Origin: Verrucomicrobiota bacterium
GTDB lineage: Bacteria > Verrucomicrobiota > Verrucomicrobiia > Limisphaerales > CANJSG01
NCBI GenBank assembly: GCA_038209745.1
Contig: JBBQXJ010000095.1
Coordinates: 1 to 16,585, forward strand
Direction of reading: 5' to 3'
Length of the DNA stretch: 16,585 nucleotides
In this document: one piece after another, positions 1,890 through 10,788 of the stretch
Layout: every line of letters starts with the position of its first letter
Numbering within the stretch: the stretch's first letter is position 1
Notes under the pieces: generated by a model
The model's input: only the letters and a program-made list of their open reading frames with translations
Databases searched by the model: none
Told to the model about the DNA's origin: nothing
Made by a program: the position numbers and the translations under genes

Positions 1890-2007
1890 TCTCGCTCCGG
1901 CTGAGGATCCATTGAGCCGTTCCTTGCGCAAACCTTCCGCTTCGGGATTCGATGTCCCGCGTTCGCGGACCCGTTCCAGGTCTGGACGCCGCACCACCCG
2001 CATATTG

Positions 2008-3834
2008 ATGAGCGACACCGCAAAGAAGCCCACCCGCCGCTGGCCCCTCTTTGGGATCGTGGCGTATCTGCGGCGCTATCCGGGGGCCGTGGCGATGTCG
2101 ATCAGCCTGCTGCTGGTCAATCTCTCCATCGAGATGGCGCAGCCGCAGATCATCGGCAGCACCATCACCCAGCTCCGTTTCCACGCGGAGTGGGGCGCCC
2201 AGGTCGATCTCTGGCCGTTCGTGCTGCTCTTCGTCTCGCTCGTGGCCACCCGCGCCGGGGTTGGCATCATCCTCGGTCCCATCCGAAACCGGCTCGTCCA
2301 ACGCGCGCTCAACGACATCCGCGCCGCCGTCTACGATTCCATCCAACGCCTCGGCTTCCGCTACCACGACCAGTCGAGCACCGGCGAATTGATCTCCCGT
2401 TCGACCACCGACATCTGGCGGCTGCAGGACTTCCTCTTCGCCTGCCTGTTCCTCGTGGTGGACATCTCCGTGGCCCTCGTCGCCACGATCACCTTGATCT
2501 TCTTCATCCATCCCCTGCTCGGCTGGCTGACCCTCGCGACGATGGCGCCCACGGTGGGCCTGATCGCCTTCTACGCCTCGAAGCTCCAGCCGCAGTGGCG
2601 CAAGGTCCACGACCTGCACGCCTCGATGACCACCGTCATCCAGGAGAACATCGCCGGCGTGCGCGTGGTGAAAGCCTTCGCCAAGGAAGAGGCGGAGATC
2701 TCGAAGTTCCGCGGCAAGCGCGACGCCTTCCTCGGCCACTTGATGTCCACGGTGAACTATTGGGCGGCCCGGGTGCCCTTCGCCCAGTTCATCTTCGGAT
2801 TGAGCACACCGCTGATGCTGTGGATCGGCGGCCGGATGGTCGTGCGCAACGAGATCCCGGTCGGCGATCTGGCCAAGGTGATCTTCTACCTCATGGCCAT
2901 CGCGGCGCGCATGGGCGCGATCGGCCAGTTCACCAACATCCTCCAGAACGCCAGCGCCAGCGCCGAGCGGCTGCTGGAGATCGTGGACGAGCCGAAGACG
3001 CTGGTCGGTGGAACGAAGCCGTTGCCGGAGGGGAAAGGACGCGTCGAATTCCGCAATGTCAGCTTCGGGTATGCCGCCCGTAGGCCGGGCATCCCTGCCC
3101 GGCAAGTTGAAGCGAAGACGCCGGATGAGGTTCCAGCACCAGCGGACGAACTTGCCGGGCTTGGATGCCCGGCCTACGGGGCGCTGCACGACATCTCCTT
3201 CACCGTCGAGCCCGGCCAGACCGTCGCCATTGTCGGCGCCACCGGCGCGGGCAAGAGCACGTTGATCCAGCTCGTCCCGCGCTTCTACGATCCCGACTCG
3301 GGCGACGTGTTTCTCGACGGCGTGAACCTCCGCGAGCTGCGTCTCGACGAACTTCGCCGCGCCGTCGGCATCGTCTTCCAGGAGACGTTCCTCTTCAGCG
3401 CGACCGTGGCGGCCAACATCTCCTATGGCCGTCCCGACGCCACGCGCGAGCAGATCGAAGCCGCCGCCCGCGCCGCCCAGGCCCACGAGTTCATCGCCGA
3501 ACTGGAGAAGGGTTACGACACGATCATCGGCGAACGCGGCGTCTCGCTCAGCGGAGGCCAGCGGCAACGCCTCGCCATCGCCCGCGCCTTCCTCCTCGAT
3601 CCACGCATCCTCATCCTCGACGACGCCACGGCGGCGGTGGACTCGCACACGGAGCGCGCCATCCAGGAAGCCATGCGCAAGCTGAGCGAGGACCGCACCG
3701 TGTTCATCATCGCCCATCGGCAAAGCACGCTGCGCCATGCGGACAAGGTCGTGGAGTTGGAAAGGGGGCGGGTTGTCGGTTGTAGGCTGCGGGTTGGTGG
3801 TGGAGCAGAAGCTGATGAGTCAGAACGAATTTAA
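2008..3834 (+). CDS. ABC exporter half-transporter (TMD+NBD), degenerate-site subunit
   Basis: TM helices, ENIAGVRVVKAF, Walker A GATGAGKS, Q-loop VFQE, signature LSGGQRQR, Walker B ILILDD (non-canonical), H-loop IAHR. ATG 2008 preferred over TTG 1912. Confidence 0.93.
   Translation: MSDTAKKPTRRWPLFGIVAYLRRYPGAVAMSISLLLVNLSIEMAQPQIIGSTITQLRFHAEWGAQVDLWPFVLLFVSLVATRAGVGIILGPIRNRLVQRALNDIRAAVYDSIQRLGFRYHDQSSTGELISRSTTDIWRLQDFLFACLFLVVDISVALVATITLIFFIHPLLGWLTLATMAPTVGLIAFYASKLQPQWRKVHDLHASMTTVIQENIAGVRVVKAFAKEEAEISKFRGKRDAFLGHLMSTVNYWAARVPFAQFIFGLSTPLMLWIGGRMVVRNEIPVGDLAKVIFYLMAIAARMGAIGQFTNILQNASASAERLLEIVDEPKTLVGGTKPLPEGKGRVEFRNVSFGYAARRPGIPARQVEAKTPDEVPAPADELAGLGCPAYGALHDISFTVEPGQTVAIVGATGAGKSTLIQLVPRFYDPDSGDVFLDGVNLRELRLDELRRAVGIVFQETFLFSATVAANISYGRPDATREQIEAAARAAQAHEFIAELEKGYDTIIGERGVSLSGGQRQRLAIARAFLLDPRILILDDATAAVDSHTERAIQEAMRKLSEDRTVFIIAHRQSTLRHADKVVELERGRVVGCRLRVGGGAEADESERI
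3077..3180. repeat. Intragenic in-frame GTAG-type REP doublet
   Basis: 3077-3108 CCCGTAGGCCGGGCATCCCTGCCCGGCAAGTT matches the reverse complement of 3149-3180 at 30/32 nt. The left arm has a perfect GCCGGGCA-TCCC-TGCCCGGC hairpin after GTAG. Confidence 0.88.
3771..3798 (+). repeat. Heptamer tandem array GGTTGNN x4 (left arm)
   Basis: GGTTGTC GGTTGTA GGCTGCG GGTTGGT. Confidence 0.8.
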
Positions 3835-3839
3835 CCCTG

Positions 3840-4211
3840 ATGACAGCGGCATTTGAGAGATTGGAAGTTTACCAACTGTCGGAACGACTGGCTGACGCGA
3901 TATGGAATCTTGTAAAAGGCTGGAATCCGTTTTCCAAAAGCACGGTTGGCGAACATGTGGTTCGTTCTGCCGACAGCATCGGGGCCAACATCGCCGAGGG
4001 CTATGGACGGGGAACCCCGGCTGACAATCGGCGTTTTGTTCGGATCGCCCGAGGTTCGCTCAACGAGACCCAGCACTGGCTCCGTCGCGCCTACAGCCGA
4101 GGACTGGTCCCGAAGGAAAAGGTCGAGGAACTAAAACCACTGATTGACGAACTCGGTCCACGCCTCAACGCCTACCTGAAATCCATCAAGCTTCGCGCCA
4201 CCGAGGACTGA
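3840..4211 (+). CDS. Four helix bundle protein (23S rRNA intervening sequence protein / bAvd-like family)
   Basis: 123 aa with family motifs FERLEVYQLS, RSADSIGANIAEGYGR, RFVRIARGSLNET.HWL; 5' half visibly more AT-rich than the flanking genes. Confidence 0.92.
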   Translation: MTAAFERLEVYQLSERLADAIWNLVKGWNPFSKSTVGEHVVRSADSIGANIAEGYGRGTPADNRRFVRIARGSLNETQHWLRRAYSRGLVPKEKVEELKPLIDELGPRLNAYLKSIKLRATED

Positions 4212-4251
4212 CAACCAGCAACCAACAACTGGCTAAGAACAACCGACTACG
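4210..4251 (+). repeat. Heptamer tandem array NNCAACC (right arm, inverse of 3771-3798)
   Basis: GACAACC AGCAACC AACAACT GGCTAAG AACAACC GACTACG; overlaps the TGA stop at 4209-4211. Confidence 0.8.
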
Positions 4252-4255
4252 GACC

Positions 4256-6058
4256 ATGCCATCCCAAGACGAAATCCAGCTCGAGGAGGAGTTCCAGCAG
4301 GCGCCGATGCGCTCCGGCACCTTCCGCCGTTTGATGGGCTACGTGGCGCCGTATCGGCGCACGCTCGTTTTGAACCTTGTCTTCACCGTGCTGGCCACGG
4401 CGTCGGCGCTGCTGGGACCGAAGTTCATCCAGCTCGGCATCGACCGCTACCTGACGAGCGTCACCACCGCCGAGGCCGCGATGCACGGCGTCTTCGTGCT
4501 CAGCGTCTACTATCTGGCGAATCTCCTCCTCGGCTGGGGCCTGTCCGTGGTCCAGGTGAAGAGCGCCATCCGCGTCGGTCAAAGCGCGATGAACGACCTG
4601 CGCATGGCCGTCTTCGAACAGATCCAGCGGCTTTCATTGAACTACTTCGACGTGACCCACCAGGGCCGTATCATCAGCCGCGCCGACACGGACATTGATT
4701 CCCTCGATCGGATCCTAACCTGGGGAGCGAACCAGCTCCTCTCCAGCGCGCTCACCCTCGTGGGCGTGCTCGGGTTGATGCTGCAATACGACTGGCGCCT
4801 GTGTCTCGCGGTCAGTGCCGTGGTCCCTCCGTTGGCCGTCGCGTCCCGGATCTTCCATGTGAAGGGCATGAACGCCTATCGCCGCATGCGTCAACAAAGT
4901 TCGGCCCTCACCGGCGCCGCAGCCGAAGCCATCTCCGGCGTCCGCGTCGTGCAGGCCTTCGCCCGCGAGGAGGAGAACCTTCGGCGCTTCGATGAAATGG
5001 GGCAGGAATACGGCCGCCGCCAGCTCGTCGCGGCCCGGATCTTCCACACTTACATGCCGTTCGTCGGGCTGCTCTCCGGCCTGGGGATGGCGATCATCCT
5101 CGGCTACGGCGGCACATTGGTTCTGCGGAACGAGATCACCGTCGGCGAGCTGGCCGCCTTCACGCTGTATCTGGGCATGTTCTTCGGTCCCATCCAGACA
5201 ATGGGCGATCTCTACAACGCCCTTCTCTCCACCGCCGCCAGCGCCGAGCGCATCTTCGGCCTGCTCGACACCCCGGTGCAGGTCCGCAACCGGCCGGACG
5301 CCATCCCTCTGCCACCGGTGCGCGGGCACATCGTCTTCGACCACGTCTGGTTCCGCTACGACACCACGCCGGCCGAAACCTGGATCTTGAAGGACGTTTC
5401 CTTCGAGGCGAAACCCGGCGAAACCGTCGCGTTCGTCGGCGCCACCGGCTCGGGCAAGACCAGCATCATCAGCCTCATCTCACGCTTCTATGAACCGCAG
5501 CGTGGACGGATCACGATGGATGGCATCGATCTCCAGGCCGCCACCGTCGAGTCGCTCCACGAACAGATCGGCATCGTCACCCAGGACAACTTCCTCTTCA
5601 CCGGCACGGTGATGGAGAACCTCAAGTTCGGCCGCCCCGGTGCGAGCGACGACGAAGCCATCGCCGCCGCGCAGACGCTCGGCACCCACGAGATGATCCT
5701 GCGGCTCCAGGAGGGTTATCAAACGACCGTCTCCGAACGCGGCGCGAATTTCAGCGCCGGCGAACGCCAGCTCCTCTGCTTCACCCGCGCCATGGTCGCG
5801 CGGCCCCGCATCCTGATCCTCGACGAAGCCACCAGCGCCGTGGATCCGAAGACCGAGGGCGCCATCCAGCACGCTCTTGAAAAGCTCTTCGAGCAACGCA
5901 CATCCTTCGTCATCGCCCACCGCCTCAGCACCGTCCGCCACGCCGACCGGCTCTTCGTCCTCGGCCACGGCGAGATCCTGGAGCACGGCACCCACGACGA
6001 GCTGATCGCCCGGGGCGGTGCCTATGCGAAGCTCTACGAGGAGTTCGTTCGAGCCTGA
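4256..6058 (+). CDS. ABC exporter half-transporter (TMD+NBD), partner subunit
   Basis: 600 aa. Walker A GATGSGKT, degenerate signature FSAGERQ, canonical Walker B LILDE, IAHRLST, C-terminal EHGTHDELIARGGAYAKLY. Confidence 0.95.
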   Translation: MPSQDEIQLEEEFQQAPMRSGTFRRLMGYVAPYRRTLVLNLVFTVLATASALLGPKFIQLGIDRYLTSVTTAEAAMHGVFVLSVYYLANLLLGWGLSVVQVKSAIRVGQSAMNDLRMAVFEQIQRLSLNYFDVTHQGRIISRADTDIDSLDRILTWGANQLLSSALTLVGVLGLMLQYDWRLCLAVSAVVPPLAVASRIFHVKGMNAYRRMRQQSSALTGAAAEAISGVRVVQAFAREEENLRRFDEMGQEYGRRQLVAARIFHTYMPFVGLLSGLGMAIILGYGGTLVLRNEITVGELAAFTLYLGMFFGPIQTMGDLYNALLSTAASAERIFGLLDTPVQVRNRPDAIPLPPVRGHIVFDHVWFRYDTTPAETWILKDVSFEAKPGETVAFVGATGSGKTSIISLISRFYEPQRGRITMDGIDLQAATVESLHEQIGIVTQDNFLFTGTVMENLKFGRPGASDDEAIAAAQTLGTHEMILRLQEGYQTTVSERGANFSAGERQLLCFTRAMVARPRILILDEATSAVDPKTEGAIQHALEKLFEQRTSFVIAHRLSTVRHADRLFVLGHGEILEHGTHDELIARGGAYAKLYEEFVRA

Positions 6059-10553: not shown

Positions 10554-10586
10554 CGGCGAAGAAGTAGCGGGCCGATCCCTGCGGGG

Positions 10587-10711
10587 CAAATCCGAAGCGC
10601 GAAGGCCAAAGGACGAACACGTCGCCAGAGGCGGAAGCGGAATTGTCGACAGGTGTTTCGCAACGGGGCTTCGGGTTTCCTCCGGGCTTTGGCCTTCGGG
10701 CTTCGGATTTG
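10587..10711. repeat. Inverted repeat built from heptamer units
   Basis: 10587-10611 CAAATCCGAAGCGCGAAGGCCAAAG matches the reverse complement of 10687-10711 at 24/25 nt; 7-nt periodicity TCCGAAG CGCGAAG GCCAAAG GACGAAC. Confidence 0.8.
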
Positions 10712-10788
10712 GCGAAGTGCGCCGTGAAACGCCCGCATCCAGCCCCTTGATGCCCGGCGGGTTCTGGCGCTAACTACCGATACTTGGC

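Follow-up and report, generated by a model that had tools for sequence, protein, structure and literature searches.

A probable IVP cassette, a four-helix-bundle gene within inverted heptamer arrays, at an ABC transporter gene junction of a Verrucomicrobiota bacterium

The IVP cassette

A contig of 16,585 nt from a Verrucomicrobiota bacterium (GenBank assembly GCA_038209745.1, contig JBBQXJ010000095.1; the whole contig is the window referred to below) carries, between two partner ABC half-transporter genes, ABC1 and ABC2, a gene for a small four-helix-bundle protein of the PF05635 family, IVP. This gene and the two inverted arrays of TnGTCnK-type heptamers that belong to it probably constitute a discrete, horizontally acquired cassette seated at the stop/start junction of the ABC pair. 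The cassette is the same kind of unit as the intervening sequences (IVS) of rRNA genes that bear an open reading frame (ORF), but it is found in an ordinary operon. Genome comparisons show that it is an insert, gained, replaced and gutted as a block, and that members of one protein subfamily share a conserved repeat unit, with different units in different subfamilies. The parts of the cassette and the two genes that it separates are as follows.

1912..3834, + strand: ABC1, upstream ABC half-transporter gene (Pfam ABC_membrane and ABC_tran; stop codon TAA at 3832-3834)
3771..3805, + strand: left arm, five tandem heptamers, GGTTGTC (3771-3777), GGTTGTA (3778-3784), GGCTGCG (3785-3791), GGTTGGT (3792-3798) and GGTGGAG (3799-3805), read directly; lag-7 self-identity 0.64
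3806..3839, + strand: spacer from the left arm to the IVP start, holding the stop codon of the extended ABC1 frame
3840..4211, + strand: IVP gene, 123 aa, PF05635/TIGR02436 four-helix-bundle protein (profile searches, predicted fold)
4211..4255, + strand: right arm, ACAACCA (4211-4217), GCAACCA (4218-4224), ACAACTG (4225-4231), GCTAAGA (4232-4238), ACAACCG (4239-4245), ACTACGG (4246-4252) and a final ACC, read directly; lag-7 self-identity 0.61
4256..6058, + strand: ABC2, downstream ABC half-transporter gene and partner of ABC1 (Pfam ABC_membrane and ABC_tran)

The right array begins on the A of the IVP stop codon, and the ACC after its sixth unit leads directly into the ATG of ABC2 at 4256. 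An earlier reading of this DNA from its letters alone (the sequence-only reading) had placed the gene between two partner ABC genes and had seen an NNCAACC array before the next ATG, both of which hold; its GGTTGNN array on the left is also present, but was taken to have four units and to end at 3798, whereas it has five and ends at 3805. The right arm is a degenerate reverse complement of the left. Periodicity was scored as the larger of the self-identities at lags 7 and 8 in the best 35-nt window, with the smaller flank counted, and was compared with 1,500 random window pairs of matched flank geometry drawn from the same genome. Both arms exceed the control maximum of 0.571. The arrays are therefore periodic beyond all 1,500 controls, whereas their complementarity (70% over the 30 nt of 3772-3801 and 4221-4250, or 85% over 13 nt) is weaker than the sequence-only reading implied. 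In the register used for the family, the left-arm unit reads TTGTCGG and matches the subfamily consensus T[TGA]GTC[AC][GT] at 6 of 7 positions. TRF (score of at least 30) detects the right array only.

Arrays change length in whole units: one metagenome contig (run X11) has a right arm that is longer by 21 nt, exactly three units, behind position 4224. Single-nucleotide polymorphisms within the right arm lie at 4236 and 4253, and no joint of an empty site across the cassette was found in four DNA runs. Five units per array, considered as a typical length (the mode), was dismissed as an artefact of the 35-nt minimum window.

By Pfam, the ORFs scanned across the 16.6-kb contig contain no transposase, integrase or other recombinase domain, in agreement with the earlier description of a cassette that lacks a recognisable recombinase. 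There is no Rfam family, rRNA included, in the window, and the cassette sits between two ABC transporter genes, not inside a helix of 23S or 16S rRNA. No sigma-70-like promoter was found in 3500-4500. The extended ABC1 frame stops 5 nt before the IVP ATG, a spacing that would be compatible with translational coupling of the two genes.

In gaining this extended frame, ABC1 lost its natural end. Compared with the full-length C-termini of four relatives (G003, G006, G009 and G028), its last ~27 codons are gone; its NCBIfam match stops at model position 553 of 576 (residue 622), and the residues that follow ...GRVV, from 3778 on, are encoded by the left array and the spacer. Despite the lost tail, ABC1 is under purifying selection relative to the relative G002 (dN 0.064, dS 0.51). 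The new tail, 18 residues long (GCRLRVGGGAEADESERI), is translated from the repeat array (window 3778-3834); ABC1 of G002 has a different array-encoded tail.

States of the junction in related genomes

The genome under study (G000) and those of its relatives (other G numbers) were compared at this junction by using ABC2 as query among 40 relatives and then reading the junctions; G000 is 92% complete and G001 93%. Nothing interrupts the ABC pair in G003 and G006, which belong to the same genus and have a full-length ABC1 tail followed by stop-cc-ATG (a 2-nt gap), and in G009 and G028, which belong to other families and show a 28-nt gap and a 4-nt overlap. Empty sites, which the sequence-only reading had proposed as a check on its idea of a cassette, thus exist in four relatives. 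In G002, an IVP cassette occupies the identical junction, after ...GR(V/L)V, with arms of another unit variant (TGGTCCG type). Its IVP is 66% identical to that of G000, compared with 87-90% for the ABC genes, and the corresponding dS is 1.68 for IVP against 0.54 for ABC2 and 0.51 for ABC1. G001 (locus L011) has arm pieces nearly identical to those of G000 and the last ~29 nt of the cassette, positioned ~27 codons further downstream, and an interior of 283 nt that is unrelated and has no blastn match in G000. Possibly, this interior represents another small element that took the place of the IVP gene. It is G+C-rich and has internal palindromes (GCCGGTGGCGCGAGCCACCGG-type arms).

The ABC2 tree groups G000 with G002 and G001 with G003 and G006, each clade supported at 99/99; taken together with the pattern of sites, these clades require at least two events. 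Between filled and empty sites, ~20 nt of target were lost in G001 and ~84 nt in G000 and G002. That a single genus has this junction in empty, filled, swapped and gutted form makes it a natural experiment, in which the insert also cut the tail off a transporter that remains under purifying selection.

These states bear on the plainest alternative, namely that the gene is ordinary content: either a stably kept accessory of the ABC exporter whose low-complexity flanks arose by chance, or a degenerate Avd gene of a diversity-generating retroelement (DGR). The location between two partner genes and the Avd-like fold would fit such a reading. On the other hand, four relatives have empty sites, the periodicity lies beyond all 1,500 controls, the other five copies of the gene in G000 sit in five unrelated operons, and the reverse transcriptase profile of a DGR (RVT_1) has no match in the 92%-complete genome. 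We consider this alternative very improbable.

The IVP protein

The assignment of IVP is firm at the level of both profile and predicted structure. It matches PF05635 at 101.8 bits (cut-off 33.8) and TIGR02436 at 97 bits (cut-off 24), and phmmer finds XCC0516 (2gsc_A, E 1.7e-8) and BT_0352 (2RLD, E 2.5e-5). An AlphaFold2 model built on a 35-sequence alignment has four long helices (pLDDT 96.4) and, in Foldseek, reaches a TMq of 0.90 to 2GSC and 0.75 to 2RLD; the next matches are Avd of the Bordetella phage DGR (4DWL, TM 0.73) and DGR ribonucleoprotein entries. The proposal of an IVP/bAvd-like four-helix bundle, made from the letters alone, is thereby confirmed. The motif R42xxxS46xxxN50xxE53 is present, with E53 invariant and R42, S46 and N50 found in at least 90% of the 35 aligned sequences; RxxxSxxxNxxE is given as a conserved motif of the IVP family in the available text of Zhang and Ye 2014 (PMC3936711). 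The protein is basic (pI 9.6, equal to the family median) and probably pentameric; the 2GSC entry (XCC0516) has five chains, A-E. With a dN/dS of 0.16 relative to G002, the IVP gene is kept under purifying selection.

Whether IVP is the Avd of a DGR was considered and rejected. The likeness in fold is there, but RVT_1 (PF00078) has no match in G000, 92% complete, and therefore IVP is not part of a DGR; its neighbours are ABC transporters, an MCP and others.

Other copies in the genome

PF05635 matches occur at six places in G000, all six between co-directional partner genes:

Copy 1, this window: between the ABC genes
Copy in a DUF1553/DUF1501 pair
Copy between a beta-lactamase-family gene and a MacB-type permease gene
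Copy L004/L146, G000:C12:11261-11843: splits lutA/lutB; GATGCCG/CATCCGG arms
Copy L005, G000:C84:12831-13388: between the E2 and E3 genes of a 2-oxoacid dehydrogenase
Copy L006, degraded, G000:C14:56296-56514: between genes for livG-/livF-like ATPases

Four of the six have both flanks periodic above all 1,500 controls, one of them at period 8; the flanks of a fifth lie above the 99th percentile of the controls, and the degraded copy is without arrays. The units differ from copy to copy (GGTTG/CAACC, TCAGT/ACTGA, GATGCCG/CATCCGG and GGAGT/ACTCC), and left and right are mirror images throughout, with an inverted-repeat significance of 0.001-0.003 in three copies. The sequence-only reading had suggested testing the flanks of paralogs for 7-nt periodicity and inversion, and the paralogs do carry inverted periodic flanks, of differing sequence. 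G003 also has the lutA/lutB copy, in the same place (IVP dN/dS 0.21), which shows that cassettes can be long-lived.

In L005, the arms have a period of 8 (ACGGAGTG-type versus ACTCC-type), and its open frame continues through the right arm; period-8 arms are likewise seen in L122 and L135-L137. The L006 remnant still matches PF05635 at 45.9 bits over profile positions 7-77, and a perfect 12-nt inverted repeat (AATGAAAAATGG / CCATTTTTCATT) remains there.

Repeat units among relatives of IVP

Relatives of IVP were surveyed by scanning one genome per species with the two closest IVP sequences as query, which confirmed 564 relatives. The survey figures rest on the best 80 of these 564, with 62-70% identity, and thus describe the subfamily only; one locus with a short flank (L090) was left out, leaving 79 loci with full flanks, and 74 control windows were taken 500 nt further out. 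The relatives come from at least eight phyla and include members of Planctomycetota, Acidobacteriota, Cyanobacteria, Verrucomicrobiota, Chloroflexota and Thermodesulfobacteriota, as well as Geobacter and Victivallis. The best lag is 7 upstream in 76 of the 79 loci and downstream in 51, and both flanks reach at least 0.60 in 45 loci compared with none of the 74 control windows. The pairing score between the arms has a median of 34, versus 17 in controls, and exceeds the control maximum in 52 of 79 loci.

The layout recurs as well. The right arm mostly begins 0-5 nt past the IVP stop codon and usually reaches the next start codon, while the left arm ends 13-80 nt before the ATG. Polarity is constant across loci: the upstream arm is the G/T-rich one and the downstream arm the A/C-rich one. 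Both neighbours lie on the same strand in 56 of 76 survey loci, a count from crude ORF calls that is indicative. The wider IVP family was sampled by searching the genomes of relatives from the same order and phylum; this second sample of 59 loci, 58 of them with a match, shows the same design, with periods that are mostly 7 and sometimes 8, 4/8 or 6.

The consensus unit of 72 left arrays is the one given above, with core information of 2.0, 1.5, 1.7 and 1.1 bits, and 53% of units match TTGTCAG at 6 or more of 7 positions, versus 1.9% of composition-matched random 7-mers. When the left unit of a locus is compared with reverse-complemented right units, 6.18 of 7 positions agree within the locus and 3.71 with other loci; the variable positions of the unit agree between own arms at 2.26 versus 1.50 of 3 (0 of 5,000 permutations), and loci with more similar proteins also have more similar units (Mantel r 0.365, 0 of 2,000 permutations), two tests that relatedness inflates. 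Relatives of the lutA/lutB copy, which are from other families and 56-57% identical to it, carry GGGATGC-type units. The sharing of TnGTCnK across at least eight phyla and the different unit among the relatives of the lutA/lutB copy together imply that the arms travel with the gene. Horizontal spread of IVP cassettes is suggested by the occurrence of relatives across phyla, by a copy number of 0-16 among 41 relatives, and by relatives of IVP on eight plasmids; none was found in a scan of viral contigs or in a phage collection.

Six cyanobacterial loci from Microcoleus, other Oscillatoriales and other cyanobacteria (L052, L058, L066, L068, L082 and L083) always have CTGCCAA as the right unit; the left unit is TTGTCAG in four of them, TTGACAG in L052 and TTGTCAA in L083. 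In five of the six, the mismatch falls at the same position in every unit, so that each arm seems to be homogenised alone. Right arms as suppliers of stop codons in three frames were also considered and rejected: judged by eye, this idea fits TGAC-type units but not the CAACC units found here or GATGCCG-type arms.

Pairing between the arms

The sequence-only reading held that, in mRNA, the arrays could pair and loop out the whole gene. In its full form, this alternative makes the cassette an IVS that acts at the level of RNA: the arms would pair in the operon transcript, RNase III would cut the stem, the IVP mRNA would be released, and expression of ABC1 and ABC2 would be separated or re-joined, with selection keeping the pairing. 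There is a precedent for it in the IVS of Coxiella burnetii, which according to the available text of PMC4990558 combines an S23p ORF, heptamers and a stem cut by RNase III. The well-matched long arms of many relatives (the 52 of 79 loci above the control maximum) are also consistent with it, as are a gene-less hairpin elsewhere in the window (10586-10712) that folds at -70.1 kcal/mol (z -5.15) and the location of all six copies inside co-directional pairs that are probably co-transcribed, with no promoter-like site found in the cassette.

For the copy studied here, the evidence does not bear this out. Its arm-arm duplex of -35.7 kcal/mol is reached by 11.5% of 1,000 shuffles and by 10% of 1,500 genomic controls. 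The minimum free energy (MFE) fold of 3755-4265 (-186.5 kcal/mol, z -2.09) ignores arm pairing and instead joins the left array to 4089-4111, inside the ORF, and a forced loop-out of the gene lies ~19 kcal/mol above it. Across the 79 loci, aligned arms contain 2,125 Watson-Crick pairs, 105 G·U pairs, 122 A·C pairs and 223 transversion mismatches; because G·U is not in excess over A·C on either strand, there is no sign of selection for an RNA stem. In addition, the arms of several Microcoleus loci mismatch systematically (TTGTCAG versus CTGCCAA), and the unit sequence is conserved beyond what pairing alone requires. The claim that the arrays loop out the gene here is thus not supported, the arms of this copy have probably decayed so that they no longer close a stable stem, and we regard an IVS acting through RNA as unlikely.

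Heptamer arrays as a genome-wide class

Heptamer arrays are a genome-wide feature of G000. Strong arrays (at least 21 of 28) number 49 at lag 7, against 0 at lag 5, 5 at lag 8, 9 at lag 10 and 4 at lag 11, and 2 after shuffling. They fall into families, among which GATGCCG is dominant and GGGTTGT, GCCGAAG and GACGACT also occur. The GATGCCG pattern has 64-121 matches in each of five genomes of the genus, and its reversed control has 0-1. With strict criteria, we found 10 inverted array pairs; one of them encloses an IVP gene in a loop of 481 nt, and the other nine contain no gene and have loops of -9 to 232 nt. At a G+C content of 63%, crude stop-to-stop frames are open on both strands, so the context of solo arrays is uninformative.

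The gene-less hairpin at 10586-10712 has CCGAAG/GCCAAAG units opposite CTTCGG; the two genes on either side of it, a CbiX gene and one for a response regulator, are divergent. Its unit family recurs at C1:138674-138803 and C39:33221-33309.

This background suggests a second alternative, in which the arrays are regulatory or structural repeats of the host (comparable to STRR, leaders just upstream of start codons), IVP is a binder that acts on them in trans, and its own arrays are autoregulatory, not transposon ends. The excess of lag-7 arrays is consistent with this, and each type of IVP arm (the dominant GATGCCG, GGGTTGT, GACGACT) is found elsewhere without the gene. Right arms mostly reach the next start codon, and published heptamer arrays, in the available text of PMC4679880, mostly lie just upstream of start codons. 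The accessible part of a study of Nostoc reports that heptamer arrays alter reporter expression and calls their binding partner "yet to be identified" (bioRxiv 10.1101/2022.06.06.494920), and IVP itself has been under purifying selection over genus-level time. On the other hand, G001 has arrays and no IVP gene, IVP copy number is patchy (0-16), and at one site the cassette behaves like a selfish insert, being present or absent, swapped and decayed; the role of IVP as a binder of arrays is, moreover, putative. A host regulator is thus possible but doubtful.

In a third alternative, the association is secondary: the arrays would be independent repeats or hairpins of the host in which IVP genes land or become trapped, and gene and arms would not be one element. 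Gene-less hairpins and solo arrays do far outnumber IVP genes, arrays persist in a genome that lacks IVP, and the lutA/lutB copy carries the commonest unit of its host. Against this stand the TnGTCnK unit shared by the subfamily in at least eight phyla and the GGGATGC-type units of the relatives of the lutA/lutB copy. Furthermore, the sole ORF-sized cargo at the strict threshold is IVP (one of ten pairs has a loop above 232 nt), and RAYT-like genes are without flanking heptamer arrays. A secondary association therefore seems to us improbable, more so than either host regulation or an IVS acting through RNA.

Proposed mechanism and comparison with known systems

For the horizontally acquired cassette, we envisage the following mechanism. 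The basic, probably pentameric IVP, a relative of Avd, would bind its own heptamer arrays sequence-specifically, as single strands or as a hairpin or cruciform. The arrays would be the ends of the element, through which host enzymes of replication, repair or recombination would insert, swap or delete the cassette. Binding by IVP, together with the use of the arrays as ends by host enzymes, has in our estimate about an even chance of being correct. Sequence-specific recognition, most simply by IVP itself, is suggested because the unit is conserved and subfamily-specific, the polarity of the arms is constant and the fold is basic and Avd-like, and the same conserved unit, polarity and fold suggest that the arrays serve as ends at the level of DNA. 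The cassette would rely on transcription of the host operon, and its A/C-rich right arm would become the leader of ABC2. RNA pairing and cleavage by RNase III would be a consequence where arms are well matched, unlike those of the G000 copy.

Several observations weigh against this interpretation. No enzyme that moves the cassette was identified among our results, and to our knowledge no catalytic activity is known or evident for PF05635. The binding of heptamers by IVP is purely inferred, and the co-variation of unit and protein is equally predicted by co-inheritance. No target-site duplication was seen when filled and empty sites were compared, at one site only. In 34 of the 79 survey loci, both flanks do not reach 0.60, and the arm duplex of the G000 copy is no better than that of shuffles and genomic controls. 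Only 10 strict inverted pairs stand against 49 strong arrays, so most arrays have no detectable partner. G001 has no PF05635 match, yet has 91 GATGCCG-array matches, on par with its congeners; arrays therefore persist without a resident IVP gene. Finally, a relative with 55% identity on plasmid pPSE7367.01 of Pseudanabaena sp. PCC 7367 (L176, 43488-43868) has no heptamer arrays on either side. That plasmid is conjugative, and a ParA gene and a small gene for a hypothetical protein immediately precede the IVP relative.

The closest known systems are the rRNA IVS of Coxiella (helix 45), Leptospira and the candidate phyla radiation (CPR), which have the same protein family and a gene within inverted termini. 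As described in the available text of PMC4990558, the S23p ORF of the C. burnetii IVS has tandem GACAGAT heptamers upstream of its ATG, and their copy number varies between strains; the termini of the element form a 28-bp stem, and the RNase III cut falls where the first repeat begins. Heptamers upstream of the ORF and variable copy number recur here, the latter as the +21-nt allele. IVP is also encoded in insertions of CPR rRNA genes whose sites are, in the accessible part of PMC11270868, scattered and patchy, as are the sites of the cassettes described here. Unlike these IVS, the present cassette lies in a protein-coding operon and has degenerate heptamer arrays on both sides instead of a near-perfect 28-bp stem, with no favoured stem in this copy.

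The second class of comparable elements is that of tandem heptamer repeats themselves, known for decades from cyanobacteria and since reported from Beggiatoaceae, Geobacter and other groups. The cyanobacterial STRR sequences are reportedly those of Mazel et al. of 1990. TAACTGA repeats are known from Beggiatoaceae, cyanobacteria and Bacteroidetes (PMC4679880) and heptanucleotide elements from Geobacter (PMC2700814); in the available text of these two papers, heptamer arrays are not connected to any gene family, and the IVP family is not mentioned. The arms share with STRR and TAACTGA arrays the tandem 7-nt units, the mostly intergenic location and the frequent extension to a start codon, and the right-arm unit of the subfamily, (C/T)AACTGA-like, is essentially the published TAACTGA motif, going by the accessible part of PMC4679880. 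Unlike the published arrays, those described here are inverted pairs around one specific gene. We found no description of PF05635 genes outside rRNA with flanking inverted heptamer arrays in a literature search that covered subscription journals thinly.

Correia/NEMIS elements of Neisseria and ERIC are intergenic hairpins resembling miniature inverted-repeat transposable elements (MITEs) that are co-transcribed and processed. Like these and the attC cassettes of integrons, the IVP cassettes are small inserts between operon genes, occur in cargo-bearing and empty forms, and have ends set by symmetry more than by sequence. They differ from MITE-like elements and integron cassettes in having periodic arrays as arms, one dedicated cargo family, no associated transposase or integrase and, at the single site that was compared, no sign of a target-site duplication. 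With Avd (4DWL; DGR ribonucleoprotein 8UBE), IVP shares the four-helix bundle (TMq 0.73-0.74 at 13-15% identity) and a basic character, and Avd works inside a nucleic acid-protein complex; unlike Avd, IVP has no reverse transcriptase in G000 and no template or variable repeat is evident, and 2GSC and 2RLD are far closer to it.

These comparisons permit a broader hypothesis that we put forward tentatively and consider doubtful as a whole. PF05635 proteins would be the missing partners of bacterial heptamer repeats: ring-shaped, Avd-like binders that, subfamily by subfamily, would read tandem copies of a 7-nt unit of their own on a single strand. The gene and its inverted arrays would then be a mobile element of a new, transposase-free class, one that settles in rRNA helices and at the stop/start junctions of operons, gives rise to gene-less heptamer hairpins and provides the next gene with its leader. 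TRAP, which reads triplet repeats, is a model for such reading of tandem units. Two old puzzles, one of them where tandem heptamer repeats come from and what they do, would merge into a single question open to test, and if IVP does read its own repeats, it would provide a simple programmable protein-repeat pair and a mobile element without a transposase. There is also a warning for annotation: IVP genes in operons are inserts and not components of a pathway, and this includes the 18 IVP genes inside cas loci that the available text of PMC3936711 interprets as having an associated function.

RAYT-like genes and other array periods

REPIN-RAYT systems, reportedly described by Nunvar in 2010 and by Bertels and Rainey in 2011, resemble the present one in combining a single-copy-type gene that has inverted repeats with many gene-less hairpin doublets. 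Unlike RAYT, IVP lacks the HUH/Y1 transposase fold, the cassette gene being PF05635 and not a Y1 (HUH) transposase relative, and its arrays outlast IVP in a congener; the RAYT-like genes of G000, for their part, have their own non-heptameric palindromes. RAYT as the mobiliser of the cassette was considered and rejected, since the flanks of the Y1_Tnp genes of G000 are not heptameric (lag-7 self-identity 0.46-0.54). There are two RAYT/IS200-like Y1_Tnp genes in the genome (G000:C137:1525-1989 and C12:6850-7314), and the one on C137 has REP-like palindromes of its own in its flanks (GGTTCGACCCTTTCAGGGTCGTG and CCGCAGGTTGCACCTGCGG types), a separate repeat system. Among array periods, lag 10 is the second most enriched in G000.

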